From positions 1,959 through 65,958 of the forward strand of contig JADHWC010000003.1 in NCBI GenBank assembly GCA_016783665.1: a DNA stretch of 64,000 bases. The letters run 5' to 3'. The stretch is from Fidelibacterota bacterium. GTDB taxonomy: Bacteria > Fidelibacterota > UBA2242. Both the position numbers and the translations under genes were made by a program. Shown one piece after another: positions 11,183-28,685 of this stretch (positions are counted from its first letter, which is position 1; each line of letters begins with the position of its first letter). The notes under the pieces were generated by a model. It ran no database searches. It was not told the origin of the DNA and saw nothing but the letters and a program-made list of their open reading frames with translations.

Positions 11183-12919
11183 ATGCAAATTATCGATAGA
11201 CAAAAAGTAAACAAACAAATTAAGGAACTGAAGAAAAAATATGGTGACGATCGCTCCGCTCTAATGCCGATACTTCAGGACCTTCAGGAAATTTACGAGT
11301 ATCTTCCGGATGTTGTAATGCAGGAGACGGCGCATTCTCTTGGAATTCACCCTGTGGAAGTTGAAGGTGTTGCCAGTTTTTACAGCTTCCTTCGCACGAA
11401 GGAAAAACAGGGCAAATATGTCATCCGGCTATGCCGGACAATTTCCTGTGATCTCGCCGGCAAATCAAATGTTGCCCGCCAGCTGGAAAATGAAATGGGC
11501 ATCAAATTCGGCGAAACAACAAAAGATGGAAAATTCACACTCGAATATACAAACTGCCTTGGAATGTGCGATCGAGGACCTGCCCTGATGATCAATGATC
11601 GTCTGTTTGCAAAGGTAGATCCTGAGAAAGCATCTCAAATCATAGCAGATTGTCGCAGGGATTTTTTAAAGAGCGACTTTCCGAAAGTTGTTCCCTCAGA
11701 TGTTAAGAAAGCCGGACCGATCCTGGATCATGGTTTAAAACCTGCTGAAGCAATAAAAAAAGCGCTTAGTATGTCACGCTCGGAAATCATTAATACTATC
11801 CGTGAATCCGATCTAAAAGGTCGCGGAGGCGCAGGTTTTCCTACTGCTGTTAAATGGCAGCTCGCCGGCGCCGCAAAAGGCGAAAACAAATATGTCGTCT
11901 GTAACGCCGATGAAGGTGAACCGGGAACTTTCAAAGATCGTATGCTGCTTTACGAACATACCGATTTTCTTCTTGATGGAATGACCATTGGCGCTTATGC
12001 AATCGGCGCTTCAAAAGGTTTCATCTACCTGCGTGGTGAATATCTCTATATGAAAAAATATCTTGAGGAAGCCCTGGAAAATCGCCGGTCGGAACATCTG
12101 CTTGGAAAAAATATCCTCGGGAAAGATGGTTTTCACTTTGATATTCGAATCCGAATGGGAGCCGGCGCTTATGTATGTGGTGAAGAGACTGCCTTAATTG
12201 AATCTCTTGAAGGCTATCGCGGTGAACCCCGCAACCGTCCGCCCTTCCCTGTCGACACAGGATTCCAGGGTAATCCGACAATCGTCAACAATGTCGAAAC
12301 TTTTATTGATTCAGCCTTGATAATTGTAAAAGGGTACGAGTGGTTCAATATTCATGGAACAGAAAAATCGAAGGGCATGAAGATCTTCAGCATCTCAGGC
12401 GATTGCGAACGTCCCGGTATTTACGAGTTTCCTTTCGGAATTAAGGTTTCCGAATTATTAAAAGAAGTTGGCGGTGAAGACGCAAAAGCAGTCCAGATTG
12501 GCGGCGCTTCCGGTCATTGTATATCACGAAAAGACTTTACCCGTACTATTGCTTTCGAAGATATCGGATCGGGCGGTTCAATTATTGTTTTCGGGCCTGA
12601 TACCGATATGCTGCAGGTAGCCAAGAACTTCCTTGAATTCTTCGTGGAAGAATCCTGCGGACAATGCACACCTTGCCGGGATGGCAATCCGAAGCTGCTC
12701 GAAGGTATCGAAATGCTCGAAAATGGACGTTGTTCCGTTACCTATCTCAATGAATTAAAAAAATTAGGCGAAACGATTCAGAATGCATCAAAATGCGGTC
12801 TTGGCCAATCAAGTCCTAACGCATTCTTATCTATTGTTGACAATTTTAAACCAGAAATCCTTGGCCCGGCAGCTGCCGGGAAGCTGACTAAGGAGGAGCG
12901 CTATGCAAGAAAAAGATAA
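11183..12919 (+). CDS. NuoE-NuoF-like fusion (HydC/HydB-like NADH-binding flavoprotein subunit of a multimeric [FeFe] hydrogenase)
   Basis: N-terminal thioredoxin-like [2Fe-2S] NuoE domain (CRTISCDLAG...CLGMCDRGPA); NuoF FMN/NADH motifs (RGRGGAGFPT, GAGAYVCGEETALIESLEG); 4Fe-4S motif ESCGQCTPCRDG. No extra C-terminal ferredoxin domains. Confidence 0.88.
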   Translation: MQIIDRQKVNKQIKELKKKYGDDRSALMPILQDLQEIYEYLPDVVMQETAHSLGIHPVEVEGVASFYSFLRTKEKQGKYVIRLCRTISCDLAGKSNVARQLENEMGIKFGETTKDGKFTLEYTNCLGMCDRGPALMINDRLFAKVDPEKASQIIADCRRDFLKSDFPKVVPSDVKKAGPILDHGLKPAEAIKKALSMSRSEIINTIRESDLKGRGGAGFPTAVKWQLAGAAKGENKYVVCNADEGEPGTFKDRMLLYEHTDFLLDGMTIGAYAIGASKGFIYLRGEYLYMKKYLEEALENRRSEHLLGKNILGKDGFHFDIRIRMGAGAYVCGEETALIESLEGYRGEPRNRPPFPVDTGFQGNPTIVNNVETFIDSALIIVKGYEWFNIHGTEKSKGMKIFSISGDCERPGIYEFPFGIKVSELLKEVGGEDAKAVQIGGASGHCISRKDFTRTIAFEDIGSGGSIIVFGPDTDMLQVAKNFLEFFVEESCGQCTPCRDGNPKLLEGIEMLENGRCSVTYLNELKKLGETIQNASKCGLGQSSPNAFLSIVDNFKPEILGPAAAGKLTKEERYARKR

Positions 12920-14831
12920 ATTATTTGAAGAAACAAACCGGTCCCCTAAAAGTACAAAAACGGCTTCCGTAAAAATACCGGTAAATACTGAGGCGATTGG
13001 TGCGCTTATTAAAGTCACTATCGACGATAAAGAGATCAGAGTTCCAATGGGAACCACAATTCTCGAAGCTGCCGGAAAGCTCGGGATAAACATTCCTACA
13101 TTATGCTATCATGAAGACCTGTGTATCAGCGGTGTCTGTCGTATATGTGTTGTAGAGATTGAAGGATATAGAACGCTTCAGGCATCTTGCGCTTTTACGA
13201 TCACTCAAGCGATTAATGTTCATACTCACACCCGTAAAGTCCGCCAGGCGCGCCGTCATATACTTGATCTTCTGCTTTCGAATCATTATGGCGAATGCTA
13301 CACTTGTGTTCGGAATAACAATTGCGAACTACAGAAATTAGCCAATGAATACGGCGTTGATTTTTACCGCTTCGGACATGTTGAAAAACCGACTTACGGT
13401 CGTGATGAATCTTCCTATGCAATTGTCCGCGATATGGATAAATGTATCATGTGCCGGCGTTGCGTACGCACCTGTATCGATCTGCAGGAAGTCGGCGTCT
13501 ATGAAGCTATGAATAAAGGCGCTGAAACCCATATCGGAACATTTATGGATAATCCCATGGCGCAGTTGATCTGCATCAATTGCGGTCAATGTATCAACCG
13601 CTGCCCAACCGGCGCATTACATGCTAACGATCCGTCAGACACAATCTGGGCGGCAATCGACGATCCGACAAAACATGTTGTAATCCAGACCGCTCCGGCC
13701 CCGCGTTCGGCGATTGGAGAATGCTTCGGACTGGAACCCGGCAAACCACTTACATTCGAAATGAATACAGCGATGCGCTATTGTGGCTTTGATAAGGTAT
13801 TTGACACAAACTTTACGGCAGACCTTACAATTATTGAAGAAGGCACTGAACTGATTCTGCGACTGTATAATGCGCTTGTGAAAAAGGAACAGCAAGCCCT
13901 GCCGCAGTTCACATCCTGTTCGCCGGGCTGGGTAAAATATATCGAACATTTTAATCCGGAAATGTTAGCACATGTCTCCTCTGTTAAAAGTCCGCAGCAG
14001 ATGTTCGGTGCGGTTATTAAAACCTATTATGCCGGACTCAATAATATCGATCCGGCTGATATTGTCACGGTGGCTTTAATGCCCTGCACGGCAAAGAAAT
14101 TCGAATGCAATCGTCCTGAAATGAACGATTCCGGTTTTAAGGATATTGATTACGGTTTAACCACACGCGAACTGGCGCAGATGTTTAAGGAAACCGGCAT
14201 AGACCTGGTAAATATGAAAAAATCGGATTTCGACGATCCTTTTGGAACTGCAACGGGTTCCGGCGTTATTTTTGGCGCAACCGGCGGTGTGATGGAATCC
14301 GCTCTCCGCTCGGTATATGAATTCATTTCCGGCGAAAAGATCGAGAATCTGTTCGATCATGCCAGGATTGTTCCGGTGCGTGGATTTGAAGGCGTTCGCT
14401 ATGTGGAATTGCCCATTGCCAAAGTCGGACCCGTGCCGGACATCCTCAAACATCTTGTTCCCGATTGGAACTGGCTGAAGGGCGTCACATTGAAAGTTGC
14501 GGTATGTCACGGTACTGCAAACGCCAAAAAAATTCTCGATGATATAAAAGCCGGCGGCAGAATGAGTGAATGCCATTTTATCGAATTCATGGCTTGCCCG
14601 GGCGGATGTCTCGGCGGCGGCGGTATGCCGATCCCGACCGATGAAAAGATCCGCGCTGCCCGCGCTAAAGCAATTTATGCCGAAGATGAATCCTCCGAAG
14701 TCCGGAAATCCTATGAGAATCCCGCTATTATAAGACTCTACTCTGAATTTCTCAGCGACGGACCATGTGGACATAAAAGCCATAAATTGCTGCATACCGG
14801 TTACACGCCGCGAGGGAAAAAACTGGTTTAA
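12903..14831 (+). CDS. hydA: [FeFe] hydrogenase catalytic subunit HydA (M3-type, with N-terminal [2Fe-2S] and accessory [4Fe-4S] domains)
   Basis: H-cluster motifs L2 MPCTAKKFE and L3 EFMACPGGCLGGGG are present; L1 reads TSCSPGW rather than the canonical TSCCPxW; N-terminal CYHEDLCISGVCRIC [2Fe-2S] and CxxCxxCxxxCP ferredoxin motifs; overlaps the upstream gene by 17 nt. Confidence 0.9.
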   Translation: MQEKDKLFEETNRSPKSTKTASVKIPVNTEAIGALIKVTIDDKEIRVPMGTTILEAAGKLGINIPTLCYHEDLCISGVCRICVVEIEGYRTLQASCAFTITQAINVHTHTRKVRQARRHILDLLLSNHYGECYTCVRNNNCELQKLANEYGVDFYRFGHVEKPTYGRDESSYAIVRDMDKCIMCRRCVRTCIDLQEVGVYEAMNKGAETHIGTFMDNPMAQLICINCGQCINRCPTGALHANDPSDTIWAAIDDPTKHVVIQTAPAPRSAIGECFGLEPGKPLTFEMNTAMRYCGFDKVFDTNFTADLTIIEEGTELILRLYNALVKKEQQALPQFTSCSPGWVKYIEHFNPEMLAHVSSVKSPQQMFGAVIKTYYAGLNNIDPADIVTVALMPCTAKKFECNRPEMNDSGFKDIDYGLTTRELAQMFKETGIDLVNMKKSDFDDPFGTATGSGVIFGATGGVMESALRSVYEFISGEKIENLFDHARIVPVRGFEGVRYVELPIAKVGPVPDILKHLVPDWNWLKGVTLKVAVCHGTANAKKILDDIKAGGRMSECHFIEFMACPGGCLGGGGMPIPTDEKIRAARAKAIYAEDESSEVRKSYENPAIIRLYSEFLSDGPCGHKSHKLLHTGYTPRGKKLV

Positions 14832-14855
14832 ATTATCTTTGCGATAAAATGAATA

Positions 14856-14883
14856 AGGCTATCCGATTGGGTAGCCTTTTTTC
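14856..14883 (+). terminator. Rho-independent terminator after hydA
   Basis: ggctatcc-gatt-gggtagcc hairpin followed by TTTTTT. Confidence 0.75.
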
Positions 14884-14939
14884 AATTTCATCTCATTCAC
14901 CTCGTTCCCAAATTTAATTTGGGAATGAGTCGAAATCCA

Positions 14940-17888
14940 TTACACTTTCTCTGAATAATCCTCAAACAACACTCTTTTCACATACTGATTCCGTTTGGGC
15001 TCAGTGAGCTTTTTGTAAAAACCCAAACTATCATCCACCAATCCTTGTAGTAATTTGTCAAATACCTTGTTGAACATAAATCTTTTATTGGATTCTGTGT
15101 TATCACCAAGATGAACTTTCCGTAGTTCCTTATCCTCATTCAACCGGGTTTGTATTTTTTCCAAATTCACTTTGTCATCGTCGTTCAAATCACTACCAAA
15201 GTTCTCATTTAGGACTTGTATGATATGGGATAGTAAATCTTTGAGTTCTTCGGGTGGAGATTCACCCACCCCGGTTGATATAGGTTGTAACTCCCCATCC
15301 TCATACATCAGGGAAATCGGATAGCTATGTTTCTTCTCAATCCTGAAATACTCCAAATCCACATAGGAAAAAACATCTGCCAATCTATCTCTTGTTCTCC
15401 TGGGGAGTTTCCTGTTCAGGAATCGCAGGAAGATATACAGTTTTTCAAGCTTTATATCTTTGAAAGTGATGATTTGAGAAATGTATCCGTACAGTCTAAT
15501 AAAACTCTGAATCTGATGACGGAAATCTTCCCTTTCTTCTTCCTCCAACCTCTTCCAATCTTCTACCACATAGTCCAAAATGGGTTGTAGTTCTTCATCG
15601 GGTATTCTGTCATCGTAGAACTTCTCTATCAACTCATTTACTGTTTCATCCCGGAATAGATTGTATTTCTTTATTTCTTGTTCAATGGAATACAGTTTGT
15701 TGGGGTCGGTTTCCTCTACAAGTAGAGTCCCTTGATAGTATGGTTGGAATGAATCCTGAATGATTTCCGGTTTATTCACAAAGTCCAATACAAGAGTGTC
15801 AGTCTTACCTGTCATCGTTCTGTTCAACCTGCTCAAAGTCTGAACGCACTGGAGTCCTTGAAGTCGTTTATCTACATACATTGTATGAAGTAACGGTTCG
15901 TCAAATCCTGTTTGAAACTTGTTACAAACAATCAGGATTCTATACTGCGGGTCTTTGAAGTTCTCCTGGGTCAATCTTTCAGGGAAACCGTTCAATGATG
16001 GCTCTGTATATTCCTTGTGAGTATCCTTATCATACACCGTTCCACTAAATCCAACCAGGACTTTGAATGGAAATTCCATTTCTTTTAACTGCTTATCAAA
16101 TTCAAGTTTGTATTTGACACAGTGAAGTCTTGAGCGGGTCACCACCATTCCGCGACTCTTGCCGCTTATTTTTAGGGAGCTATGGTTCAGGAAGTGTTCT
16201 AAAATGATTTTGGTTTTTTCAGAGATGGTATGCGGATGAATATCTACATATTTCACCAACATCTTTTTTACACGACTTTCGGGCAGTTCCTTATCCTCCT
16301 CAATCTTTTTATTTAGACGGAAATATCGCTCATAAGTGGTGTAATTCTGTAAAACATCAAGAGTAAAATTTTCTGAAATACTCTGTCTCATTGAATACAA
16401 ATCAAAAGAAACGAACTGTCCGTCCTCGTTCTTTCTGCCAAAGATTTCAAATGTTTTATTCTTCGGTGTTCCACTAAAACCGAAATAGGAAATATGAGCT
16501 TGTCTTCCCCTTGAAATAATTTCATCTAATATCAGTTTATCCACTTCGGTAAGGTCATCCCAATCCTCACCTTCCTGGAACTCATCCAATACAGATTTGG
16601 ACAGAGATTTTTTCAGGTGTTTGGATGTTTCTCCACTTTGAGATGAATGAACTTCATCGATGATAACGCCGAACTTCTTACTTTTCAGTCTGGATATGGA
16701 ATCTGATATAACAGGGAATTTCTGAACTGTGGTAATGATGATGGATTTCCCCAATTCAAGGTATTCTTTCAACTGTTGGGAATTGACATCCACAGGATTC
16801 ACTACACCTTTGGTTTGTTCTAACTGTTTAACGGTATTCCGTATTTGTTTGTCTAAAACCTTTCTGTCTGTAACTACAATTACAGAATCAAACATACCTT
16901 CCGTGTCTGCGGGAGTTCTGTAAAGAGAAGTCAATAGATGAGACAACCAACCAATAGATAAGGATTTACCACTTCCTGTGCTGTGTTGTATCAGATAATT
17001 ATTTCCAACACCTTCTTCAACTACAGATTTCTTCAAGCTCCTGATGACATTCAATTGATGGAATCGGGGGAAAATCAGAAGTTCTTTTTTCTTATCAACC
17101 ACTTTCCCAAGCTTTGAATCATACACCTTCTCTTTTTCTTCACGGATATGAACAAAGTTCTCTATCAAATCCAACATACTGTTGGGATGTAGAATATCCT
17201 CCCACAGATAATGGGTTTTATGTCCTTTAGGATTGACAGGATTTTCAATGTCTTTGTTGTAAGGAAGAAACCGTGTCTTACCACCCATCAACCGTGTCGT
17301 CATTGACACTTTTTCATTCCCTACAGAAAAATACACAAGATTCCGTTTGAATCTGAACAACGGTTCTTTGGGATCGCGGTCATACTTCCATTGTTTCTCA
17401 CCGTCGATATGGTTCTGTCCCGTGAGTGTGTTTTTCAGTTCCATCATCACGATTGGGATTCCATCGATGAAGATTCCCATATCAATAGAGTTCTCATTTT
17501 TCAGAGAGTATTTCAGTTGTCGGATGACGGTAAAACGATTCTGTTTGTATAAATCTTTATGTTCAGGATTCAGCCCGCTCCTGGGCTGGAAATATACCAG
17601 GTGAAAATCACAGCCCCTGTCCTTGACGCCATTCCGTAAGACATCGATAACCCCTCTGTTTTCAATTTCTGTGGATACTCGTTTTATCAGTTTGATTTCT
17701 GTTTCAGAACCATATTGTAATTCAAGTTTTTCAAGGGTTTTAGCCTGGGTTTCCTGAATGAATTCAATCAGTTGGGCAGGAATAAGACAGAGAGTTTTAT
17801 CATATATGGATGGGTCTGATGAAGAATAACCACTACTGACAAGATGTTCTTCAATGTGTTCTTCAAAGTCTTGTTCAAGGTAATTCAT
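14940..17888 (-). CDS. hsdR: Type I restriction enzyme R subunit HsdR
   Basis: 982 aa with an N-terminal PD-(D/E)xK nuclease motif (IDGIPIVMMELK), SF2 helicase motif I (HSTGSGKS) and motif II (DEVH); lies in an hsdM/hsdS context. Confidence 0.85.
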   Translation of the reverse strand: MNYLEQDFEEHIEEHLVSSGYSSSDPSIYDKTLCLIPAQLIEFIQETQAKTLEKLELQYGSETEIKLIKRVSTEIENRGVIDVLRNGVKDRGCDFHLVYFQPRSGLNPEHKDLYKQNRFTVIRQLKYSLKNENSIDMGIFIDGIPIVMMELKNTLTGQNHIDGEKQWKYDRDPKEPLFRFKRNLVYFSVGNEKVSMTTRLMGGKTRFLPYNKDIENPVNPKGHKTHYLWEDILHPNSMLDLIENFVHIREEKEKVYDSKLGKVVDKKKELLIFPRFHQLNVIRSLKKSVVEEGVGNNYLIQHSTGSGKSLSIGWLSHLLTSLYRTPADTEGMFDSVIVVTDRKVLDKQIRNTVKQLEQTKGVVNPVDVNSQQLKEYLELGKSIIITTVQKFPVISDSISRLKSKKFGVIIDEVHSSQSGETSKHLKKSLSKSVLDEFQEGEDWDDLTEVDKLILDEIISRGRQAHISYFGFSGTPKNKTFEIFGRKNEDGQFVSFDLYSMRQSISENFTLDVLQNYTTYERYFRLNKKIEEDKELPESRVKKMLVKYVDIHPHTISEKTKIILEHFLNHSSLKISGKSRGMVVTRSRLHCVKYKLEFDKQLKEMEFPFKVLVGFSGTVYDKDTHKEYTEPSLNGFPERLTQENFKDPQYRILIVCNKFQTGFDEPLLHTMYVDKRLQGLQCVQTLSRLNRTMTGKTDTLVLDFVNKPEIIQDSFQPYYQGTLLVEETDPNKLYSIEQEIKKYNLFRDETVNELIEKFYDDRIPDEELQPILDYVVEDWKRLEEEEREDFRHQIQSFIRLYGYISQIITFKDIKLEKLYIFLRFLNRKLPRRTRDRLADVFSYVDLEYFRIEKKHSYPISLMYEDGELQPISTGVGESPPEELKDLLSHIIQVLNENFGSDLNDDDKVNLEKIQTRLNEDKELRKVHLGDNTESNKRFMFNKVFDKLLQGLVDDSLGFYKKLTEPKRNQYVKRVLFEDYSEKV

Positions 17889-18089
17889 TTTTCCAATTCT
17901 TTTCTAAAGTTTGTCTAATTTAGTAAAGAAACTGCGTGATTCAAGTGATAATACATAATTCGAATAACTCCTTGTTATAGCGATAGATAGATGTATTCAT
18001 ATCCTGCATTTCAATCTTATTTGCTATCAATTCAACACCCTTCTTTACTAAAACTTTACTAATTCTTTACTAAAATCCATTTTCTACCA

Positions 18090-18665
18090 CGTAACCCACG
18101 AATTTATTCGTGGGTGATACAATAATGTCTAAACCAAACCGATTCATCGGTTTATCTCCAGATTATGCAACTTCATGAATTGTTCATATTCCTCTTTGAA
18201 GGTCATTTTACGATGATGCTCTTCTTGCGTTCGGATGTATCGTTCGACTTTTCCCACATCAGATTCACTAACAGAAAACGCTCCATAGCCAACCTGCCAA
18301 CTGAATTTTAATTGTACTAAATCCTCCTGATTAATCCAATGAGACGTTTCCCCTTTGATAGATTTCATTACTTGAGCAATTGAGACCTCTCTGGAAAGTA
18401 AAAATAATTGATGCACATGGTCACTTGTCCCATTGATAATTAGAACCTTACAATCCATTTCCTCCAATTTCTCGTATAAATGGGTATGTACATCTTTACG
18501 GATAGCATTAACAAGCAATGGTCTCCGATCTTTAGTTCCAAAGATGCCGTGTATCCATAATTTTGTTAGTGAGTGACTCATAACTTTCCTTTGTATAAAC
18601 CGTTAAAACGGTTTCCTTTTTGTTGTTGTTCATGCTCCCACGATTGAAATCGTGGGTTTCTAACA
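18090..18665 (-). mobile_element. IS200/IS605-family (possibly RAYT-like) element inserted between hsdR and hsdS
   Basis: A Y1/HuH tnpA gene is flanked on each side by a pair of hairpins in mirror arrangement. Left side: cccacgaatttattcgtggg then aaccgattcatcggtt; right side: aaccgttaaaacggtt then cccacgattgaaatcgtggg. Confidence 0.7.
18144..18581 (-). CDS. tnpA: IS200/IS605-family tyrosine (HuH, Y1) transposase TnpA
   Basis: 145 aa with HuH motif (SDHVHQLF) and a C-terminal catalytic Tyr region (ERYIRTQ); N-terminal WIHGIFGTKDRRPLL resembles IS200 TnpA and RAYT. Confidence 0.8.
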   Translation of the reverse strand: MSHSLTKLWIHGIFGTKDRRPLLVNAIRKDVHTHLYEKLEEMDCKVLIINGTSDHVHQLFLLSREVSIAQVMKSIKGETSHWINQEDLVQLKFSWQVGYGAFSVSESDVGKVERYIRTQEEHHRKMTFKEEYEQFMKLHNLEINR

Positions 18666-18721
18666 ATTGTTTATCATTCAGTCCTCGATTGTGATTGTGG
18701 ATTGCTTCGTATGGTTCGCAT

Positions 18722-20158
18722 TCATCTTGATTGTGTCTCTCCTTCAACCAAGACGGTTGAGTTATACCCCCTCACATCAATTTTCCCCGTCACCACTTCG
18801 GAAATAAGTGATTGACGGTATTCTTTTAAAAGTTCAATTCGTTGGGTTTCTTTTTCAATGGTAGTGTCAATCTTTTGGGTTTGTTCATCAAGATATTCAA
18901 CGATTTGGTGTTGTTCAGTATTGGTTGGTTTTGGATAAACCATATTTGAATATTTTTCACCATTCACATTTTCAATAGTTGAAGTGATTGTGTTTAGACG
19001 AATCCAATATAAATAAAAATCAGTTTTCGTTGTGTAAAAGACAAATTTTGAAGAAAAATAATCCCCAAAATTGAATCTTACTAAATAACCACCTGAAGAA
19101 TACATACCATCTTGAAGATGTAAATATGATTTGCCTACAGTATGTCCACTTCTACATAACAACAAATCATATTTATCCAATAGAAACTCTACATCCACAT
19201 CTGATTCAATTAAATATTTTCCATTATCGGGATTCAATTCTCCACAATCATCAAGGTCTGTAATCCTTATAAACCTTACACCATTTTCAGTATATCTGTC
19301 ACTACTAATATTGAGACCATAACGAACTGGTATTAGTGTATCGTATTTAAGTTTTGAAATAGTCCAACCACTCGGAATCTCCCCAATCCACTTAACACCA
19401 CTATCTTTCATCTCCACATTCCTGCCCGCCCTCTCGTCCGTTCGGGAGCCAGCCTGCTCACGGAGTGCTGGCAGGCAGGCGGGGGGGTTCAGCCCTTTGG
19501 TCACACAATGATTGATAAGGGCAGTTCGTTTTTCTTTCAGGAGTTCGATCTTCTTTTCTGTTTTTTCAATCAGTTCGTCAATCTTTTGGGTTTTGTGGTC
19601 AAGGAAGGAGACGATTTGTATTTGTTCTCTTTTTGGAGGAATCAAGAATTGAAAAGTAGAAATCTCTTCTTGACTCAACATTGGGATTGTTGTAATTGAA
19701 CCAATCAAATTAATTTGAGTAAAAATGTGATTTGATTGTAAATAGTACCAAAGAAATATTGGATTTTCTTTTATTTGATTAACCAAAACAAGACTCGGAT
19801 TGATTGTCATTTCACCATAATCTTCATCAATGAATACTACTTTCCCTAAACTTCCCCTTTGACTAATAATCATATCACCTTTTTTCACCATAATCTCGGG
19901 GGACTCATAATATTTATCCCAACTCAAAAAGTCAGGATTTGATAGGTCTATTTTTTGGGATGAGTTGATATGTTTCCCTCCAAGAACTAAACATCCTTCC
20001 CCTTCATCTACAAAATCAGTTTTCTTATATCCTTTGTATCCAATCCTACCCTGTAAATTTACAATATATCCAAGTTTTTTTCTTGCCCACCCACTCGGTA
20101 TCTCTCCAATCCACTCAACTTCACTATCTTTATATGACGGATACGGTCTCATTATCAA
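18722..20158 (-). CDS. hsdS: Type I restriction-modification specificity subunit HsdS (two target-recognition domains)
   Basis: 478 aa with duplicated EVEWIGEIPSGW / GVKWIGEIPSGW TRD starts, a central coiled-coil conserved region, and C-terminal ...LISEVVTGKIDVR. Confidence 0.85.
   Translation of the reverse strand: MIMRPYPSYKDSEVEWIGEIPSGWARKKLGYIVNLQGRIGYKGYKKTDFVDEGEGCLVLGGKHINSSQKIDLSNPDFLSWDKYYESPEIMVKKGDMIISQRGSLGKVVFIDEDYGEMTINPSLVLVNQIKENPIFLWYYLQSNHIFTQINLIGSITTIPMLSQEEISTFQFLIPPKREQIQIVSFLDHKTQKIDELIEKTEKKIELLKEKRTALINHCVTKGLNPPACLPALREQAGSRTDERAGRNVEMKDSGVKWIGEIPSGWTISKLKYDTLIPVRYGLNISSDRYTENGVRFIRITDLDDCGELNPDNGKYLIESDVDVEFLLDKYDLLLCRSGHTVGKSYLHLQDGMYSSGGYLVRFNFGDYFSSKFVFYTTKTDFYLYWIRLNTITSTIENVNGEKYSNMVYPKPTNTEQHQIVEYLDEQTQKIDTTIEKETQRIELLKEYRQSLISEVVTGKIDVRGYNSTVLVEGETQSR
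19419..19497. repeat. GC-rich palindromic element E2 inserted in-frame in the hsdS inter-TRD linker
   Basis: A ~78 bp stretch of ~70% GC inside a ~33% GC gene. It translates to ...PPACLPALREQAGSRTDERAGRNV... exactly between the central conserved helix (TKGLNP) and TRD2 (EMKDSGVKWIGEIPSGW). Its reverse complement is similar to E1 at 10222-10287. Confidence 0.7.
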
Positions 20159-20239
20159 TTCTTTTTACATAGGTTAATAACGCAAAAAATTACACATACT
20201 TTTATATCTATAGGTAAATAATCCAATTTTCTACCCATA

Positions 20240-21304
20240 CTATTCTTCGCCTGCAAATAGTGTAAATAATGGTAAGTTGACATAATAGTTACTATTTTTG
20301 ATTTTCATTTTTTTTACAAAGCCATCTTCTGATAACTGATTGAGATAACCGGATGCCGTTTTTCTTGACACCCTTAATTCATGTTCAACAAACTCTATTT
20401 TTGTATAAGGATGTTTAAACAAGTTGTTTATCAAATCCTGGCTATAAAATTTATATTGATTTCTTATTCGATGTTTATAATCCATCATCAACCGCTTAAT
20501 CTCAGAAATAATTATGACGGTGTGTTGCGATGTTTCTGCAATGCCATTTAACATCCAGATAATCCATGATTCCCAATCATTCTCCGTGCGAACACCTTGC
20601 AACAATTGATAATAATCCGTTTTGTTCTCAATAATGTATTTGCTGAGATAAAGAACCGGAATATCAAGTAGTTTTTTTTGTAGTAGATACAGAATATTGA
20701 TAATTCGCCCGGTCCTGCCATTACCATCATAAAAAGGATGAATACTTTCAAACTGATAGTGAATGATTGCCATTTTAATCAACGGATCAATATCGTGCAG
20801 TGAATCTTCATTGATATAATTTTCAAGATTGCTCATTAACGCAACAATTTCATTTGCATCCTGTGGCGGTTTGTAGATGGTTTCTCCAGCGCTGTTTTGC
20901 AATACCGTGCCAGGTATTCTTCGAAAACCTTGCTTTATCGGCTCAATTATTTTTTGAATTTCCAAAATATAATTATTTGTCAAAAGATGGTGCTTTTTGA
21001 CCAGTTTAAATCCTTTTTTCAAAGCATTTGCATAATTTTTCACCTCTTTTGCCGCTAGATTATTGAAACTATCGTCCGCATCCGCACGGTAAAGATCATC
21101 TTGAGTAGTTATTATATTTTCAATTGCAGAACTATCTTTTGCTTCTTGTAAAGCAAGTGTATTTATAAGAATTTCTTCATTAGGAATTGTTTTGGATTCT
21201 CCTTTCAACTCCCCCAACGCCCGACTGGCTTTGTTTAAATTTTCATAAATATCCGATGTTTTGACATTTATATCCAGAGGCAACTTTTGCAATGATATAT
21301 TCAT
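20240..21304 (-). CDS. fic: Fic/DOC family protein (adenylyltransferase-type Fic)
   Basis: 354 aa with Fic motif HPFYDGNGRTGR; overlaps the hsdM stop by 4 nt and lies between hsdM and hsdS. Confidence 0.85.
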   Translation of the reverse strand: MNISLQKLPLDINVKTSDIYENLNKASRALGELKGESKTIPNEEILINTLALQEAKDSSAIENIITTQDDLYRADADDSFNNLAAKEVKNYANALKKGFKLVKKHHLLTNNYILEIQKIIEPIKQGFRRIPGTVLQNSAGETIYKPPQDANEIVALMSNLENYINEDSLHDIDPLIKMAIIHYQFESIHPFYDGNGRTGRIINILYLLQKKLLDIPVLYLSKYIIENKTDYYQLLQGVRTENDWESWIIWMLNGIAETSQHTVIIISEIKRLMMDYKHRIRNQYKFYSQDLINNLFKHPYTKIEFVEHELRVSRKTASGYLNQLSEDGFVKKMKIKNSNYYVNLPLFTLFAGEE

Positions 21305-23007
21305 AATATCTCCTTCATCAATCCTTCTGTTTCCTCCTCCAATTTCAACAAATCCCGGGTGATTTCTTCCAATGACCGAAGTGGTTTATATTTGTAAAAA
21401 TACTTGGTGAAGTTGATTTCGTAGCCCACTTTGTCTTTGTCTCTATCCATCCAGGAACCCTTCAAATGGGGTATAACTTCCCGTTGGTAGTATTCCTCAA
21501 TATCATCCAACAAGGGAACACGTTCATAATCTCTTTTTGATGTGTCAGGTTTCGGATTTCCCTGCTTATCCGTTACTATTTCACCGTTTTCCATCATCGG
21601 TTGTTCTATGGTGACTTTGGTATAACCGAAAAACTCATTGGGATAAATTTTACTGTATTCACTCTCCGCAAAGTTCAGATAGTGTTCCAATAAGGTATTT
21701 CGGTTTTCCTCGGTGATTTCTTTCCGTTTATTCCCCAGTGATTTCTTCATCTGTTTGAAGAAAGCAGAACCGTTGATGAGTTGGACTTTACCTTTTCGTC
21801 TTTCTGATTTCCTGTTATTTACAATCCATATATAAGTGGAAATACCTGTGTTGAAGAACAGTTGGTCGGGAAGTGATACAATACACTCCAGCCAATCATT
21901 TTCAATAATCCATTTACGGATTTCAGATTCACCGCTGCCACTGTCCCCCGTGAATAATGGAGAACCGTTAAACACTATCCCAATCCGGCTTCTTTTTGAT
22001 TCCATCTTGGAAATCATATGTTGAAGGAATAACAAAGAACCATCAGAAGTTCGTGGTGTTCCGACGGAGAATCTTCCATAGGGATTCTGTCCCTCATTTT
22101 CAATGAACTCTTTTTCAGATTTCCAGCTAACACCAAATGGGGGATTTGTAATCATATAGTCATATTTTTTTCCTTGAAAATTGTCCTCTGATAGAGATGA
22201 ACCCAATCGGATGTTGTCAGGGTCTTCATCGGTAATCAACATATCGGACTTACAGATTGAATAGGTTTGGGGATTCAGTTCTTGTCCTAACAGACGAAGT
22301 TTCACTTTGTCGTTGATATTCTGATGGATATATTCTTTTCCGATAGTCAACATTCCGCCAGTTCCACAACAAGGGTCAAAAATGCTTCTGACTTTGCCTT
22401 CACCTTGTAAATCATCTTTATCCTCTGAAAAGACAAGGGAAACCAACAGACGAACTACATCTCTTGGGGTATAGTGTTCTCCACTTGTTTCATTGGACAT
22501 TTCAGAGAACTTCCGTAACAATTCTTCAAAGATAAGTCCCATATCACGGTTGGAAATCTTATCAGGGTGTAAATCTATTTCGGTGAGTTTGTCTATAAGA
22601 ATAAACAGACGGTTATTCTTGTTCAGTTTCTCAACCGGTTTCTCCAACTGAAAATTCTCAATAATCTCGACAACATTGTCACTGAATCCACCCAGGTAAT
22701 TCTGAAAGTTCATATATACATTCTGTGGGTCGGATTTCAGTCTTTTCAAATCATACTTGGAATGATTGAAAAAGCTGGTGTTGATTCGGTTTAGAATGAT
22801 TGGGGTGGGGTCATCTACTTTGGTTCTGTATTCTTCGTAGATGTTGAACACATCGTCTTTGTGAGGTTCTAAAACACAATCCAATCTCCGTAGAACGGTG
22901 AACGGTAGAATCACATCGCCGTATTCGTGTGGTTTGAATAATCCCCGAAGGACATCATCACAGACATTCCAGATGAAGGATGATATTTGGTTATAGTTAT
23001 TTGACAT
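21301..23007 (-). CDS. hsdM: Type I restriction-modification N6-adenine DNA methyltransferase HsdM
   Basis: 568 aa with SAM-binding FDPCCGTGGML and catalytic NPPFG (ITNPPFGVSW). Confidence 0.9.
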   Translation of the reverse strand: MSNNYNQISSFIWNVCDDVLRGLFKPHEYGDVILPFTVLRRLDCVLEPHKDDVFNIYEEYRTKVDDPTPIILNRINTSFFNHSKYDLKRLKSDPQNVYMNFQNYLGGFSDNVVEIIENFQLEKPVEKLNKNNRLFILIDKLTEIDLHPDKISNRDMGLIFEELLRKFSEMSNETSGEHYTPRDVVRLLVSLVFSEDKDDLQGEGKVRSIFDPCCGTGGMLTIGKEYIHQNINDKVKLRLLGQELNPQTYSICKSDMLITDEDPDNIRLGSSLSEDNFQGKKYDYMITNPPFGVSWKSEKEFIENEGQNPYGRFSVGTPRTSDGSLLFLQHMISKMESKRSRIGIVFNGSPLFTGDSGSGESEIRKWIIENDWLECIVSLPDQLFFNTGISTYIWIVNNRKSERRKGKVQLINGSAFFKQMKKSLGNKRKEITEENRNTLLEHYLNFAESEYSKIYPNEFFGYTKVTIEQPMMENGEIVTDKQGNPKPDTSKRDYERVPLLDDIEEYYQREVIPHLKGSWMDRDKDKVGYEINFTKYFYKYKPLRSLEEITRDLLKLEEETEGLMKEIL

Positions 23008-23090
23008 ATTTTATTTCCCTTTTTATCGGCTGTATCAAGTCGGCGTTGAAGCGCTTGTTATGTGTTTTCTCACTTAATTATTTATCAATC

Positions 23091-24752
23091 TTAAATTTCT
23101 TCTATTCTATCTTTATTTATCCATTGTAAAAATGTTGGATATTTTTGCACTGATGAAATTAGGTATACTTTTTTCTTTGTTCTAGTTAGTGCAACAAGAA
23201 AATTACATATATCTCGATCAGTATTTTTAGTTTTGTCATTATCTTTTATAAAATAACGATCATCGAAATGAGTAATAAATACTAGATCTCCTGAAAGACC
23301 TTTTGAGCTTTGTATTGTTGTAGTTTTAATCGGTATTTTTCTGATAGCAGGAATACCTACGGGTTGAAAAACATTATTTATTTTTTCACGTGCGAATTCA
23401 TTTAATATGGCATAAGGATCTATGTTAATTTTTTTCATAATGTCAATAAATTCATCATTATCAATAGGCTTTTTATCTTTTATCTTTTTTAGTATTTTTA
23501 AAATACTTTTTACTTCTTTTTTAAAATCCTTATCAACTATTTCATAAATCATTTTACTAGAATTTGAATATGTAGCACTTAATAAAGTACTAAAATCATC
23601 ATTCGATAATAGATATTTTGAAACTATACGCCAACCGAGGTTATCATTGATATTGTTAAGTAGAAGTTTAAAACCATCTAAAAGGGATACTTCTTTTTCA
23701 TCCTTTATCTTACACTCAATATTTTGCATCCCTTTTTTCTTCAATGCCTCGGCAATAAAATTAGATTGTTTTCTATAAGGAGAAATAATTAATACTGAAA
23801 ATTTATTTCTTAAATCTTTTGCCATTTCGCTTATCTTTTTTTCAATAAACCAAGGTATTTGACTTGCGAATATCTGTTTGTATCCAATAGTTGAATATTT
23901 TTCACTTTCTTTATCTTTTTCTTTTTCGTGAAAATATTGAAATGGTTTATTAATACGTTGATCAAGAAAATCAAATTTTTTAGCAGCAATTATAATGTCA
24001 TTTGTTGCATCGACGATAACTTGTGTACACCGAGCACAAAATGGTAATTTGAATGATTCATAATCGGGTACATCATCTCCAAACCTTTCTCGTATATGTC
24101 GAGTACTAGCATTTTTAAATTCATAAAGCGCCTGATCATCATCACCTGCTAATAATATCGAACTTTTTTCAGATAGTAAATCGATAAGGGATACTTCAAG
24201 TTTATTAAAATCCTGAAATTCATCTATTAAAATTTGATCATATGATGGTATTCTTTCTCTATATTTTTCAAAATACTTTACTAATGCATAGATAATACTT
24301 GAATAACCATAGTAATTATAATAATCGACTCGCTTTTTATAAAACTGAAGTAATTCATCATTATCTTTTCTATTATGAAATAGATATTCGAAATCAACTT
24401 CTTTTCTAAGAATATATTGGGTATCCTCTTTTATAACATTTGTAAGTTTCGGAAAAATATTAATACTTCTACTCTTGACAGCACTAAGCGTACTTCGGGC
24501 GAAACTGTGAAGTGTTTTGACGTCTGACATACCATATAATTCTAAGGATAAATCTTCAACAAGAGAATTAATAAAGGTTAGTGTCAATGAATTTTTTTTA
24601 CCCTCAAGTATTTTTCTAAATAGAAAGGTCTTCCCTGTACCTGGTCCGGCAACAACAACCTTTTTGAATGATTTTGAATTTAATATCGCATCAACATGTT
24701 TTTTCCTATCATTTATTGCTTTGGAATAAACTGATCCGTCTAGCTCTGACAT
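23091..24752 (-). CDS. UvrD/Rep-like superfamily-1 DNA helicase (stand-alone, very AT-rich gene)
   Basis: 553 aa with Walker A (AGPGTGKTF), motif II-like (LIDEFQDFN), GDDDQALYEF, and C-terminal motif VI-like (VALTRTKKKVYL). Confidence 0.75.
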   Translation of the reverse strand: MSELDGSVYSKAINDRKKHVDAILNSKSFKKVVVAGPGTGKTFLFRKILEGKKNSLTLTFINSLVEDLSLELYGMSDVKTLHSFARSTLSAVKSRSINIFPKLTNVIKEDTQYILRKEVDFEYLFHNRKDNDELLQFYKKRVDYYNYYGYSSIIYALVKYFEKYRERIPSYDQILIDEFQDFNKLEVSLIDLLSEKSSILLAGDDDQALYEFKNASTRHIRERFGDDVPDYESFKLPFCARCTQVIVDATNDIIIAAKKFDFLDQRINKPFQYFHEKEKDKESEKYSTIGYKQIFASQIPWFIEKKISEMAKDLRNKFSVLIISPYRKQSNFIAEALKKKGMQNIECKIKDEKEVSLLDGFKLLLNNINDNLGWRIVSKYLLSNDDFSTLLSATYSNSSKMIYEIVDKDFKKEVKSILKILKKIKDKKPIDNDEFIDIMKKINIDPYAILNEFAREKINNVFQPVGIPAIRKIPIKTTTIQSSKGLSGDLVFITHFDDRYFIKDNDKTKNTDRDICNFLVALTRTKKKVYLISSVQKYPTFLQWINKDRIEEI

Positions 24753-24797
24753 ATTATTTCCTTTGATTAGTTATTATACACAAAACATATGATTAGC

Positions 24798-25079
24798 CTA
24801 TATATTTATGCACTTTTGAGTTTTCTGCATGTAGAAAAATATTGCTACCTGTCGTATTGTTAAGCGGTATTGTCCTTCGAATTGAACTCCGGTTATGCCG
24901 GTTTCTTCCTGAATGACTTCTAAGGCATAACGGTTGTTTAAAATATTCTGACGGTCAATAACCGAAGTTGTTAAGCTTTTCTTATTTGGGAATTGAGAAT
25001 TGACAGTTGATAATTTTTTATTTTTTTTGTTCATTTTTTTCTCTTTGGACTTTTTTATGATAGAAATTAAAAGTTTCAA
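24798..25079 (-). CDS. Hypothetical small protein
   Basis: 93-aa ORF with a lysine-rich N-terminus; no recognisable motif. Confidence 0.3.
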   Translation of the reverse strand: MKLLISIIKKSKEKKMNKKNKKLSTVNSQFPNKKSLTTSVIDRQNILNNRYALEVIQEETGITGVQFEGQYRLTIRQVAIFFYMQKTQKCINI

Positions 25080-25118
25080 TAGTTCTTCAATATCCGCTTA
25101 CTGTTTTCAATTCAATGA

Positions 25119-25565
25119 TCACAAAGAATCACCATGGTTGAACCCAATTTCCCATTGTTTATTAATTAAGCCCCAGATGAGATATCCGATTCCCGGCGCC
25201 ATGCCAACGATAAAACTGCCATGTGTCAAATGTTCGGTTTTATACATCATCAACAAATAAGTACTGAATCCGGCAATAACAGCAACGGCAATCACCATGT
25301 ACCAATATTTTAAAACCAGATGTTCGAATGTCATAAACAGACCGACGGATATTCCGGTTGTGATCAGATACAGATAAAATCCGACGCTGTCGATCGCAGA
25401 CAGCCTGTGCAGGATGAGACCGGTTAATAAAGCAAACAACAGGTTTATAAAAAGTAATTTTATTGTCTTTCGCCGGATTTGTTTTGGATCAGTCTGGTAT
25501 CGAAACTGAATCCTGGCAATAAAAACACCGATTAATGCGGATAATAAAAATATTTTGGTTATCAT
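25119..25565 (-). CDS. Hypothetical integral membrane protein (about 4 TM helices)
   Basis: 148 aa, hydrophobic throughout; overlaps the next gene by 4 nt. Confidence 0.5.
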   Translation of the reverse strand: MITKIFLLSALIGVFIARIQFRYQTDPKQIRRKTIKLLFINLLFALLTGLILHRLSAIDSVGFYLYLITTGISVGLFMTFEHLVLKYWYMVIAVAVIAGFSTYLLMMYKTEHLTHGSFIVGMAPGIGYLIWGLINKQWEIGFNHGDSL

Positions 25566-26182
25566 GGTGATTTCTTATCATTCCATTTTTCACTTTCCCA
25601 TACTTTTCGGGAAACAACTCGATAAGATGGGGAATACTTTTCAATATAATCTCTCGAATGATGGATAACGGGATAATTGTTTTCAATAATGTATTGATTG
25701 AATTTGGCGAATGCACCCTGATCAATTGACAGCTTGCCGCTTTCGACCCGTTTCGCAATTCCGATCCAGATATCTCTAAAAGGCTCTATATTTTCGGGCG
25801 AATTCCGGGCTGATTTAGTGATGATCGCAGCCAATTTATCCGAAGATAAACCGTCATATTTAAAGCGTTTCAGGTTTATTCGAATATAGGAAGAATCAGG
25901 CGCAATATTTTCAACCAGTTTTATCTGTTGGGTGGCTTCTGTCTGAGACATTTCTCGGTTCAGATAATTCAATATTTTCTGAAAATCAGTCCCAAGATGC
26001 CCGGGTCCCAGCACTCCCTGATAGACCAATTTATAAATATCATCCACCTGCATGTCCGGGTAATGCATCAGATGCATTTTGATCAACGATTCCCATGCGC
26101 GAATGGTCTCGTCAACTTTCATGGAATTACAGGAAAATAAAATCATCGCCGACATCGTGGTTATAATTAAGATATTTTTCAT
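25562..26182 (-). CDS. Hypothetical lipoprotein
   Basis: 206 aa with a signal peptide and lipobox-like LFSCNS. Confidence 0.5.
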   Translation of the reverse strand: MKNILIITTMSAMILFSCNSMKVDETIRAWESLIKMHLMHYPDMQVDDIYKLVYQGVLGPGHLGTDFQKILNYLNREMSQTEATQQIKLVENIAPDSSYIRINLKRFKYDGLSSDKLAAIITKSARNSPENIEPFRDIWIGIAKRVESGKLSIDQGAFAKFNQYIIENNYPVIHHSRDYIEKYSPSYRVVSRKVWESEKWNDKKSP

Positions 26183-26203
26183 CCTGGGGCAATAATGAAA
26201 TCG

Positions 26204-26392
26204 CTAAGACTTGTCCTGATCGTCAATGTCTTTAAACTTGGCGTCTTCAATTTTATCAGGATCGATATGAAGGTTTTTTTGAGTCCTCTTTCCTTTTACA
26301 TCAAATTTATCAGTAGAAGATTTCTTCAAATATGGCTCAATTATTTTCCAAATTATGTATGCAACGAACAGAATTAATAAAAACCGGAACAT
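26204..26392 (-). CDS. Small membrane-anchored hypothetical protein
   Basis: 62 aa with a single N-terminal TM helix and charged tail; fills the gap exactly between flanking genes. Confidence 0.35.
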   Translation of the reverse strand: MFRFLLILFVAYIIWKIIEPYLKKSSTDKFDVKGKRTQKNLHIDPDKIEDAKFKDIDDQDKS

Positions 26393-27036
26393 TATATTGC
26401 CTTTCGTTCCGGATTATAATATACGGTTCCGGATATCGGCTTTTTCAATAATGATAACAGATCGTTTAAATCATCTTCATTCTGAACGAAATCAATTTCA
26501 TTCGTGTTTATTATCAGCAGCGGACTGGCTTTATATCGGAAGAAATGTTCATTATATATCTGGTTCAGGGATTCTATGTATTCCCTTGATATTTCCCTTT
26601 CGTAGCTTCTACCCCGCTTTTTGATATTCGCCATCAATCTGTCAGTGCTTGCCTGGAGAAATACAACCAGGTCAGGTTTGGGAATTTCCTTTTCCAACAA
26701 CCGGGCGATTAAATTGTACAGCACAAGTTCTTTTTCGTTCAGGTTAAGATGAGCAAAAAGTTTATCTTTATCGAACATATAATCGCTGATGAGCAAACTA
26801 TGGAATAAATCCACCTGCTTTAATTCAAGTTGCTGACGATAGCGGCTAAGTACAAAATACAGCTGTGTTTGAAAAGCATAGCGTTCCGGATCAACGTAAA
26901 AATCTTCCAGAAACGGATTTTCTTCGAATTTCTCTGTGACCAGTCTGGCAGACATCCGTTCTGATAAGATTTTTGCGAAACTGGTTTTTCCCACTCCAAT
27001 CGCACCTTCTATGGCAATATAGTATAAATGCTTCAT
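26392..27036 (-). CDS. Deoxynucleoside kinase
   Basis: 214 aa with P-loop IEGAIGVGKTS, the dNK-family ERS-like segment and LID-region arginines. Confidence 0.85.
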   Translation of the reverse strand: MKHLYYIAIEGAIGVGKTSFAKILSERMSARLVTEKFEENPFLEDFYVDPERYAFQTQLYFVLSRYRQQLELKQVDLFHSLLISDYMFDKDKLFAHLNLNEKELVLYNLIARLLEKEIPKPDLVVFLQASTDRLMANIKKRGRSYEREISREYIESLNQIYNEHFFRYKASPLLIINTNEIDFVQNEDDLNDLLSLLKKPISGTVYYNPERKAI

Positions 27037-27062
27037 AAATACTGTAATTCCTCACTCATAAT

Positions 27063-27614
27063 TTAATGACTTATCCAGGATTTAATATCTTTAATTTTTT
27101 CAACTTGGTCGGTATCGCTGCAGTTATTAAGCAATTCCTGCATTGTTCTATTTTTAACCGGATGGATATAATCCGGAGCAATATCCGTTATCGGCTGTAA
27201 GACAAATCGTCTTTCTTCTATTTTTGGATGCGGAATCGTCAACAGCGCAGATGATATCACCTGGTCCGAAAAAAATAGTATATCGATATCTATTTTTCTG
27301 GGACCATTTCGCTTCTGTTGAAAATCTCTTCCTGATTGTGCTTCGATATGTTTGTTAAAATCTAAAAGATCATCGGCGGTCAATTCAGAGACACCTTCTA
27401 ATACAAGATTATAGAACCGGGCTTGTTCTCTGAGATATTTAGGTTCCGTTTCATAGAGACAGGAAATATTGCTGACCTGAAAGTTATCTGAAGTATTGAG
27501 ACTCTGCACTGCTTCTTTTAAAAATTGTTCCCTGTCGCCAATATTTGATCCAAGCCCGAGAAATATGGGGTAATAGCTCAAAGTAGTTCCTCGATCTCGT
27601 CGCGCGTTCTGCAA
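27063..27614 (-). CDS. folK: 2-amino-4-hydroxy-6-hydroxymethyldihydropteridine pyrophosphokinase (HPPK)
   Basis: Typical HPPK N-terminus YYPIFLGLGSNIGDR and DIDILFF; adjacent to folB. Confidence 0.88.
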   Translation of the reverse strand: MQNARRDRGTTLSYYPIFLGLGSNIGDREQFLKEAVQSLNTSDNFQVSNISCLYETEPKYLREQARFYNLVLEGVSELTADDLLDFNKHIEAQSGRDFQQKRNGPRKIDIDILFFSDQVISSALLTIPHPKIEERRFVLQPITDIAPDYIHPVKNRTMQELLNNCSDTDQVEKIKDIKSWISH

Positions 27615-28668: not shown

Positions 28669-28685
28669 CGAAATCTTCAGCATAC

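Follow-up and report, generated by a model that had tools for sequence, protein, structure and literature searches.

Several described systems bear on the locus reported here. Classical Type I restriction and the AMPylating activity of SoFic proteins are established functions of their families, from which the roles given below to the corresponding genes are taken, and Type I restriction-modification (RM) with an embedded Fic gene is represented in current collections (SoFic; PADLOC-DB, NCBIfam NF046030). In Gabija, the UvrD-like helicase GajB is the partner of the OLD-family (ATPase-TOPRIM) nuclease GajA, and UvrD-like motors also drive the AddA, RecB and AdnB proteins and the UvrD/PcrA/Rep helicases, while integrons carry defense genes as cassettes. 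Here, we describe a 64,000-nt stretch of a Marinimicrobia chromosome (contig JADHWC010000003.1, hereafter 'the window'; mean GC 39.1%) in which a Type I RM unit with an embedded SoFic gene adjoins a gene for a UvrD-like superfamily 1A (SF1A) helicase of 553 aa. On balance, we lean toward reading positions 14883-25118 as a variable defense island at a recombination hot spot of this chromosome, composed of three layers of different age. These would be a mobile Type I RM unit running from about 23072 to 14940 (hsdM, SoFic, hsdS, an IS200-type element and hsdR), the scar of an earlier PDC-M59A-type gene, and a separately acquired, AT-rich single-gene module of 1.7 kb that encodes the helicase (Table 1).

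The clearest evidence for the island comes from a relative without it. L173, a metagenomic contig from a close relative with about 92% nucleotide identity to the window, is collinear with it on both sides, L173 7462-11064 corresponding to window 28717-25119 and L173 13036-17389 to window 14882-10525 (blastn). Between these flanks L173 holds 1.97 kb, consisting of two unrelated small genes and a single 59-bp match to the window. Collinear flanks without the whole block mark a true variable island, and the different cargo in L173 suggests a hot spot that is filled differently in each genome. A first-pass annotation of the window, made from the sequence alone, had proposed a composite defense island; the comparison bears this out and shows it to be horizontally acquired. 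The helicase and RM block (14883-24783) directly follows the 59-bp segment, with L173 alignment homology stopping after TAATCATATGTT. L174, an independent contig, matches positions 24377-25902 with 100% identity and so covers the junctions on the right, speaking against a misassembly at these points. Scans for Rfam families and tRNAs over 14000-26500 and 10000-30000 found neither in or beside the island.

All genes of the island lie on the minus strand and would be transcribed in the order 93-aa open reading frame (ORF), SF1 helicase, hsdM, SoFic, hsdS, IS200-type tnpA and hsdR. Pfam, PADLOC and NCBIfam confirmed their identities, so that the ORFs and the same-strand block of the first-pass annotation stand; its placing of the small ORF does not, since this ORF precedes the helicase rather than following it. 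Two side observations concern the hot spot itself. The 59-bp segment, which sets apart two independently variable slots, contains a short hairpin that reads ATGCA..TGCAT in the window and CTATG..CATAG in L173 (two sequences only). The cargo of the relative (L173 11124-12365) encodes a 179-aa protein, with no match in PADLOC or Pfam, and a 216-aa putative lipoprotein, with no match in PADLOC.

The boundaries of the helicase module separate it from its neighbors. Homology to the RM unit of another locus, L172, which has no helicase, begins 18 nt past the helicase stop codon, and homology to L173 ends 31 nt ahead of the helicase ATG; the module is therefore essentially a bare ORF. That RM-unit homology stops so close to the stop codon, combined with a GC content of 27.6% against 39.1% for the window, points to acquisition of the helicase independently of the RM unit. 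The low GC content also contrasts with the RM genes (33-39%), in agreement with the AT-richness relative to the flanks that had been noted at first pass. No target-site duplication was seen by eye at the module junctions. A candidate attC remnant behind the helicase, the best match to an attC 5'-arm profile at 23043-23062, 28 nt past the stop codon (nhmmer E=0.055), was rejected because this stretch aligns with the hsdM leader of helicase-free L172. A covariance model of attC sites from Ignavibacteria arrays likewise gave no match in the window with E<2, and the window copy thus appears to carry no sign of an integron origin.

The small ORF upstream of the helicase had been taken for an orphan that follows the helicase and might form a pair with it. 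Its residues 34-85 match positions 2-53 of the 338 positions of the PADLOC model PDC-M59A (3.2e-13), and this homology ends at the start of the 59-bp shared segment. The closest annotated homolog found by tblastn is a 339-aa 'DNA-binding protein' on the Ilyobacter plasmid pILYOP01, where a Doc toxin gene comes next and a type III RM system adjoins. In Pfam, the ORF and the two ORFs of the right flank returned nothing useful at E<=10. Although the ORF resembles the N-terminus of PDC-M59A, only about 50 of some 338 residues are left in the window, with no Doc gene beside them, whereas a PDC-M59 system would be recognized by a full-length protein with its partner. By this comparison, the ORF is best described as the 5' remnant, or scar, of a gene that occupied the hot spot before; it has no relation to the helicase family and is no partner of the helicase.

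A database entry named 'MAG: AAA family ATPase [Candidatus Marinimicrobia bacterium]' has exactly the sequence of the helicase protein. The protein carries every SF1A motif (I, Ia, II, III, IV, V and VI), and GPGTGKT, DEFQD, GDDDQALY, R241, SKGL and VA..R do not vary among the 33 family members aligned (alignment A1). The AlphaFold (AF2) model, with a predicted local distance difference test score (pLDDT) of 86.8, has the four-domain 1A/1B/2A/2B fold of UvrD and no extra domain. Foldseek returned UvrD, PcrA and Rep first, with template-modeling (TM) scores of 0.66-0.70 and 15-18% identity, followed by AdnB, AddA and RecB (motors of this type at ranks 24-34) and, from rank 35, GajB (8SM3, 8JQB, 8IUD; TM 0.34-0.36). 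From motifs and fold, we regard the protein as an SF1A member of the UvrD-like superfamily with a predicted intact ATPase and translocase core.

This UvrD-like fold and motif set could be those of a housekeeping repair or replication helicase, an ortholog of UvrD, PcrA or Rep, and the first-pass annotation had named such orthology as one finding that would overturn its reading. However, the protein scores only 63, 55 and 39 bits against the NCBIfam models for uvrD, pcrA and rep, 5-6% of their cut-offs of 1144, 911 and 951. Identity to UvrD structures is about 16%, and the protein has 553 aa where the aligned UvrD/PcrA/Rep chains have 620-720. The gene is, moreover, absent from the corresponding site of syntenic L173, strongly AT-skewed relative to the host genome, and distributed patchily across phyla despite 50-68% identity among its relatives. 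Shared architecture aside, then, the helicase differs from UvrD/PcrA/Rep in being shorter, sporadic and horizontally moving, and a housekeeping role is effectively refuted.

The likeness to Gabija, which the first-pass annotation had raised, fares little better. PADLOC models for GajB are the only defense models that the helicase matches (best 1.6e-21, 74.6 bits), which could make it an orphan GajB left behind after loss of GajA. Yet these matches are partial, covering residues 131-444 and hence only the generic UvrD core, and the fold is much closer to UvrD than to GajB. No GajA, AAA_15 or Toprim match was found by Pfam or PADLOC in the ORFs between 23091 and 26182, and no OLD/AAA_15-TOPRIM family reaches even 2 of the 144 flanking ORFs of about 43 close relatives. 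The solo state is, furthermore, conserved across the family tree, and the nucleases that accompany some family members are of the PD-(D/E)xK rather than the TOPRIM type. We therefore consider decay from a Gabija system very improbable.

Literature searches turned up no paper on this helicase family and no characterized homolog. The family lies outside PADLOC-DB 2.0 beyond generic matches to the GajB core and exceeds no NCBIfam cut-off; it is new in this sense, although UvrD-like helicases of defense islands are as such a known kind. Database searches yielded 1624 matches of about 550 aa with 50-68% identity across phyla, the top 120 listed matches being about 540-610 aa long and 54-68% identical to the window protein. 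Members occur in Ignavibacteria, Patescibacteria (the candidate phyla radiation, CPR), Acidobacteria, Planctomycetes, Verrucomicrobia and Deltaproteobacteria, and at least 471 relatives were recovered when 185,579 species were scanned, each through one representative genome. High conservation combined with so patchy a distribution points to frequent horizontal transfer under purifying selection, and the family appears highly mobile and almost restricted to uncultivated lineages.

One vehicle of this mobility is visible in Ignavibacteria, whose integron clade is sister to the clade of the window in the family tree. At three loci (L007, L011, L012), a chromosomal integron array includes the helicase among its cassettes, with attC sites on both sides (L007, L011) or upstream (L012), and a fourth locus, L067, has an attC site upstream of the helicase. 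These are the integron contexts counted, L067 on its upstream site only; the energy-based attC finder worked on low-GC arrays and gave many false positives in GC-rich loci. In L007, all 15 of the 15 aligned intergenic spacers (alignment A2) show an attC-like pattern that starts with TAACCCGC..TCAGCCCGACCGC and ends with GGGCGGCGGGCTAA.CGCAACGCCGTTA. Like described defense cassettes, the helicase stands in these arrays as a single cassette among AbiJ-, SNIPE/T5orf172-, FRG- and caspase-like ones, whereas the window copy lies outside any integron and its sole attC-like stretch is the hsdM leader.

The arrays deserve a note of their own. L007 1-17653 (Melioribacteraceae GCA_019638015.1), L011 and L012 have unusually long attC sites (~160-220 nt), and the Ignavibacteria cassettes encode AbiJ_NTD4, SNIPE/T5orf172, FRG, Peptidase_C14 (caspase-like), DUF5677 and acetyltransferase proteins, such that the arrays look like a defense-rich cassette bank. 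On L008 (2097-4540), part of the contig of L012, the same array holds two gene fragments, one from an AAA_15/SMC_N ATPase (72 aa) and the other from a further helicase of the UvrD type (223 aa). Together they may be what is left of a Gabija-like pair after decay.

Extreme mobility of this kind, the cassette status in Ignavibacteria, the large serine recombinases among the neighbors (4 of 144 flanking ORFs) and the lack of an effector domain would also suit cargo of a selfish or mobile element, a gene that helps an integrative element or cassette to replicate or recombine and has no part in defense. The rest of the survey speaks against such a role. Replication initiators, relaxases and integrases are not consistently adjacent, no neighboring family exceeds 6 of 144 ORFs, and the recurrent neighbors are RM and defense genes. 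No homolog was found in 72,556 plasmids at E<=1e-20, and 2.9 million viral contigs held no close relative, the best match being 29% identical. We rate this explanation as rather unlikely.

The genomic company of the family instead gives its association with defense. In a sample of 83 non-redundant loci, RM-type N6-methyltransferase-like ORFs account for 20 of the 555 ORFs at offsets 1-4 from the helicase but for only 2 of the 649 that lie at offsets >=5 of these loci, an odds ratio of 12 (Fisher p=1.3e-5). Such a gene lies within ±4 ORFs of the helicase in 19 of the 83 loci, co-oriented with it in 17 of the 19 (binomial p=7e-4), and several of the helicase-methyltransferase gaps are shorter than 30 bp. 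The juxtaposition of helicase and RM genes to which the first-pass annotation had drawn attention is thus a recurrent one, with a 12-fold local enrichment. The partners include HsdM-type genes (L010, L014, L025, L026 and others) and Type IIG genes of the Eco57I/MmeI kind (L009, L018, L041, L061, L085 and others), Type I and IIG examples having been checked by Pfam. RM-linked members are scattered over the family tree, and the three closest sequences (the window, L009 and L010) adjoin three different RM arrangements.

Nuclease genes form a second kind of neighbor. A Cas4-like PD-(D/E)xK nuclease gene of about 250 aa begins 2-16 bp after the helicase in L014, L016, L025 and L085, and a 502-504-aa protein with PDDEXK_1 and RNase_H_2 domains is encoded directly after it in L018 and two genes downstream in L176. 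A nuclease gene thus stands beside or near the helicase in six relatives, directly downstream in five. In the window no partner nuclease gene was found, as had been observed at first pass, even though several relatives carry one. A side observation concerns L085, where positions 3308-13000 form a co-oriented string with gaps of <=11 bp: a 1094-aa protein with PLD and SNF2 helicase domains, a 1137-aa Type IIG Eco57I/MmeI-like methyltransferase, the SF1 helicase, the Cas4-like nuclease, and ORFs of 425 and 242 aa. The string looks like a multi-gene system of the DISARM or Type ISP kind.

What the helicase does can be proposed from this context with graded confidence. Judging from its sequence and neighborhoods, we somewhat favor a defense-associated helicase, either accessory or stand-alone. 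It would be an ATP-driven translocase on single-stranded DNA that engages invading DNA at ends or nicks, for example those made by restriction, and would then unwind or strip the foreign DNA as the motor half of an end processor of the AddA/RecB type. The nuclease would come in cis in some relatives, and from the host or the RM system in the window. The helicase would thereby reinforce restriction or serve as a small independent defense gene. The comparison with AddA, RecB and AdnB rests on the UvrD-like motor and on the split pairs of helicase and Cas4/RecB-family nuclease in the six relatives. The differences are considerable, as the helicase is much smaller, its nuclease is a separate gene in relatives and absent in the window, no second subunit accompanies it, nothing points to Chi-like regulation, and the setting is a mobile accessory one instead of the core genome. 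As a specific mechanism, end processing strikes us as unlikely.

A broader proposal is that the ~550-aa proteins constitute a new and widespread defense-associated SF1A family of uncultivated bacteria and some archaea. They would act as a portable 'motor module' that joins Type I or IIG systems or a Cas4-like nuclease in processing or destroying restricted foreign DNA, and that passes from phylum to phylum as a single gene, in some cases in the form of an integron cassette. We put this forward tentatively. A number of observations weigh against the favored reading of a defense-associated helicase. In about 77% of the family loci (64 of 83), the four ORFs on either side of the helicase include no RM methyltransferase, so the linkage is facultative, and it could reflect shared insertion hot spots instead of function. 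Some loci have housekeeping neighbors (L034, L038, L042), and the window helicase arrived independently of the RM unit and has no nuclease partner. The locus sample consists mostly of metagenome-assembled genomes and was annotated with a crude ORF caller, and the family tree is a neighbor-joining tree with no support values.

Several of these observations would be expected of an autonomous single-gene helicase directed against invaders or mobile genetic elements, with no functional tie to RM, that merely gathers with RM genes in hot spots, defense islands and integron arrays. It would then be natural to find the gene alone between housekeeping genes or as a single integron cassette, to see it arrive separately from the RM unit, and to find unrelated defense genes beside it (Shedu, AbiJ, an Hhe-like gene and HTH+Fic; GmrSD also occurs among the neighbors). 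The 144 flanking ORFs of the close relatives match 113 Pfam families, of which the commonest, N6_Mtase, is matched by 6 of them, and all-against-all clustering of the 555 neighboring ORFs revealed no universal partner gene. On the other hand, methyltransferase genes crowd offsets 1-4 and are nearly absent from offsets 5-12 of the same loci, and their co-orientation and short gaps look tighter than generic co-occurrence in islands. A protein with no effector domain would, in addition, need some partner activity. Autonomy is therefore a possibility that we hold as tentatively as the motor proposal, and the wider reading of a defense-associated helicase, accessory or stand-alone, remains the one we prefer.

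Table 1. Coordinates of the island and its parts in the window (aa, amino acids; TRD, target recognition domain)
Feature	Position	Strand	Description
Variable island	14883-25118	minus	About 2 kb of unrelated sequence in its place in syntenic relative L173 (blastn)
hsdR, 982 aa	14940-17888	minus	Pfam HSDR_N, ResIII, SWI2_SNF2, T1R_D3; PADLOC REase_I 4.9e-45
IS200-type element	18059-18776	minus	Left end truncated, fused to hsdS 3' end
tnpA (Y1 transposase), 145 aa	18144-18581	minus	PF01797 2.4e-26; NCBIfam IS200 NF033573 67.6 bits, cut-off 55
hsdS, 478 aa, two TRDs	18722-20158	minus	PADLOC Specificity_I 3.4e-104 over residues 3-466
SoFic-type Fic AMPylase gene, 354 aa	20240-21304	minus	PADLOC SoFic 2.3e-120; Pfam Fic_N/Fic/SoFic-like_C
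hsdM, 568 aa	21301-23007	minus	PADLOC MTase_I 1.4e-244; PF02384 (N6_Mtase) 7.2e-63; PF12161 (HsdM_N) 2.4e-22
hsdM leader	23008-23072	minus	Aligns with hsdM upstream sequence of helicase-free L172; belongs to RM unit, not helicase module
AT-rich helicase module	23073-24783	minus	31-nt leader, 553-aa ORF, 18-nt tail; GC 27.6%
SF1 helicase ORF, 553 aa	23091-24752	minus	Pfam UvrD-helicase, AAA_19
59-bp segment shared with L173 intergenic region	24784-24842	minus	blastn 78% identity to L173 12621-12679
93-aa ORF	24798-25079	minus	Upstream of helicase
Apparent truncated 5' remnant of PDC-M59A-type DNA-binding-protein gene	24843-25079	minus	Most of 93-aa ORF

The RM layer is an ordinary, mobile and intact unit that apparently remains functional, judged on its coding sequences. 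HsdM is a gamma-class N6-adenine methyltransferase with an HsdM_N domain, 93-94% identical in amino acids to relatives in other Marinimicrobia. The two TRDs of HsdS are separately matched by half-length PADLOC models (residues 8-226 and 247-466). HsdR combines an N-terminal PD-(D/E)xK nuclease with an SF2 motor, has the Walker A motif GSGKS and a D..ELK nuclease motif and is of full length, 982 aa against 985 aa in L172, with 95% amino acid identity between the two and a ratio of nonsynonymous to synonymous substitution rates (dN/dS) of 0.06. Across comparisons, dN/dS is 0.06-0.11 for hsdR and 0.04-0.06 for hsdM. HsdS, by contrast, is just 45-46% identical to the HsdS proteins of L170 and L172, with only the conserved inter-TRD spacer segments matching, which seems to be the usual pattern of specificity swapping. 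In function, an M2S complex would methylate the bipartite site specified by HsdS, an R2M2S complex would translocate from unmethylated sites and then cut, and SoFic would act as an embedded AMPylating effector.

The mobility of the unit is apparent from its relatives. L170 and L171 have the arrangement hsdM-SoFic-hsdS-Y1_Tnp-hsdR in completely different genomic flanks, and L172 is a plain hsdM-hsdS-hsdR unit without SoFic or insertion sequence (IS). Nucleotide homology of the window to all three runs from the hsdR stop codon to the hsdM start, in L172 about 65 nt further into the hsdM leader. The locus thus resembles Type I RM with embedded Fic in its Type I model matches, in the intact motif and domains of SoFic, and in an hsdM-SoFic-hsdS order that is also found in other Marinimicrobia. 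The SoFic gene lies between hsdM and hsdS, shares 4 bp with hsdM and retains the catalytic motif HxFx(D/E)GNGRxxR, as HPFYDGNGRTGR at residue 189. It scores 359.6 bits against an NCBIfam equivalog cut-off of 550, and so is a family member rather than an ortholog of the Shewanella protein; the IS200-type element between hsdS and hsdR is a further departure from the described arrangement.

In L170 (7617-9944) and L171 (7656-9983), the slot upstream of hsdM that holds the helicase in the window is occupied by genes for a 221-aa and a 536-aa protein, with a BrnT toxin gene just upstream. The 221-aa protein has a weak HEPN_RiboL-PSP match (2.4e-4), the 536-aa protein has no match in Pfam or PADLOC, and the two may be another uncharacterized defense pair.

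The IS200-type element encodes a TnpA whose HUH (HVH) and YIRTQ (catalytic Tyr) motifs are intact. Its homologous core spans about 705 bp (window 18763-18059), and its identity to the L170/L171 copies is 87.8% over 727 bp. A hairpin is present at the right end (18094-18115), but the left-end counterpart, at 14509-14530 in L170, is absent from the window copy, which hence departs from the pattern of hairpins at both ends by which the IS200 group is recognized. In elements of the IS608 type, a copy that lacks one subterminal hairpin should be immobile, and by this analogy the window IS is probably an old, truncated copy that no longer moves. Its end abuts the hsdS coding sequence, and the junction has changed the last ~12 residues of HsdS.

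The same IS occupies the same hsdS-hsdR spacer in the two other Marinimicrobia RM units, L170 and L171, so that it is not a private disruptive insertion. L172 provides an empty site, with a spacer of 62 bp against 892 bp in the window and, as a side observation, a CCTGTC..GACAGG hairpin. Between the window and L170 (tnpA at 14731-15177), the synonymous divergence (dS) of tnpA is 0.22, against 0.76-0.80 for the flanking hsdM and hsdR, which hints at repeated insertion. The closest RM relative of the window is IS-free L172. Low tnpA divergence and an IS-free nearest relative together suggest either repeated site-specific insertion into the spacer or precise excision in L172, and under both histories hsdR appears to have survived long coexistence with the IS.

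This history bears on the earlier suggestion that the IS might uncouple restriction from modification and leave a methylase-only system. The position of the IS between hsdS and hsdR and the altered HsdS terminus lend themselves to this idea, as does a scan for sigma-70 promoters, which identified no clear hsdR promoter and gave sites no more numerous than in shuffled sequence. But the whole block yielded no terminator-like site on the minus strand, so read-through would be possible, and HsdR is 95% identical to that of the IS-free unit. The arrangement is also kept in L170 and L171 with an intact hsdR, for which the window-L170 pair, both with the IS, gives a dN/dS of 0.11 at a dS of 0.80, indicating strong purifying selection in IS-carrying lineages. 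Uncoupling is thus quite improbable, and the suggestion is not supported.

Away from the island, the attC energy scan drew attention to an intergenic cluster of short G/C-clamped hairpins at window positions 5760-5980 (CCCCCTTTAATAAGGGGG, CCCCTCTAATAAGAGGGG, CCCCCTTTACTAAGGGGG). These are REP-like or terminator-like and unrelated to the IS hairpin.

RM, SoFic and IS200 are already known kinds, and the block that they form is textbook material that carries little weight beyond annotation. The locus as a whole cleanly illustrates, in nature, how turnover at a defense hot spot proceeds in layers: next to the scar of one gene stand an RM unit and a single gene that was added later. The useful part of the island is the helicase, a member of a compact, strongly conserved and promiscuously transferred SF1A family. 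Should it turn out to serve defense or to assist restriction, the defense repertoire would gain a minimal module made of a helicase alone or of a helicase plus a nuclease. Such a module would also be relevant to how lineages such as the CPR bacteria, home of helicase-nuclease pairs, dispose of DNA once it has been restricted.

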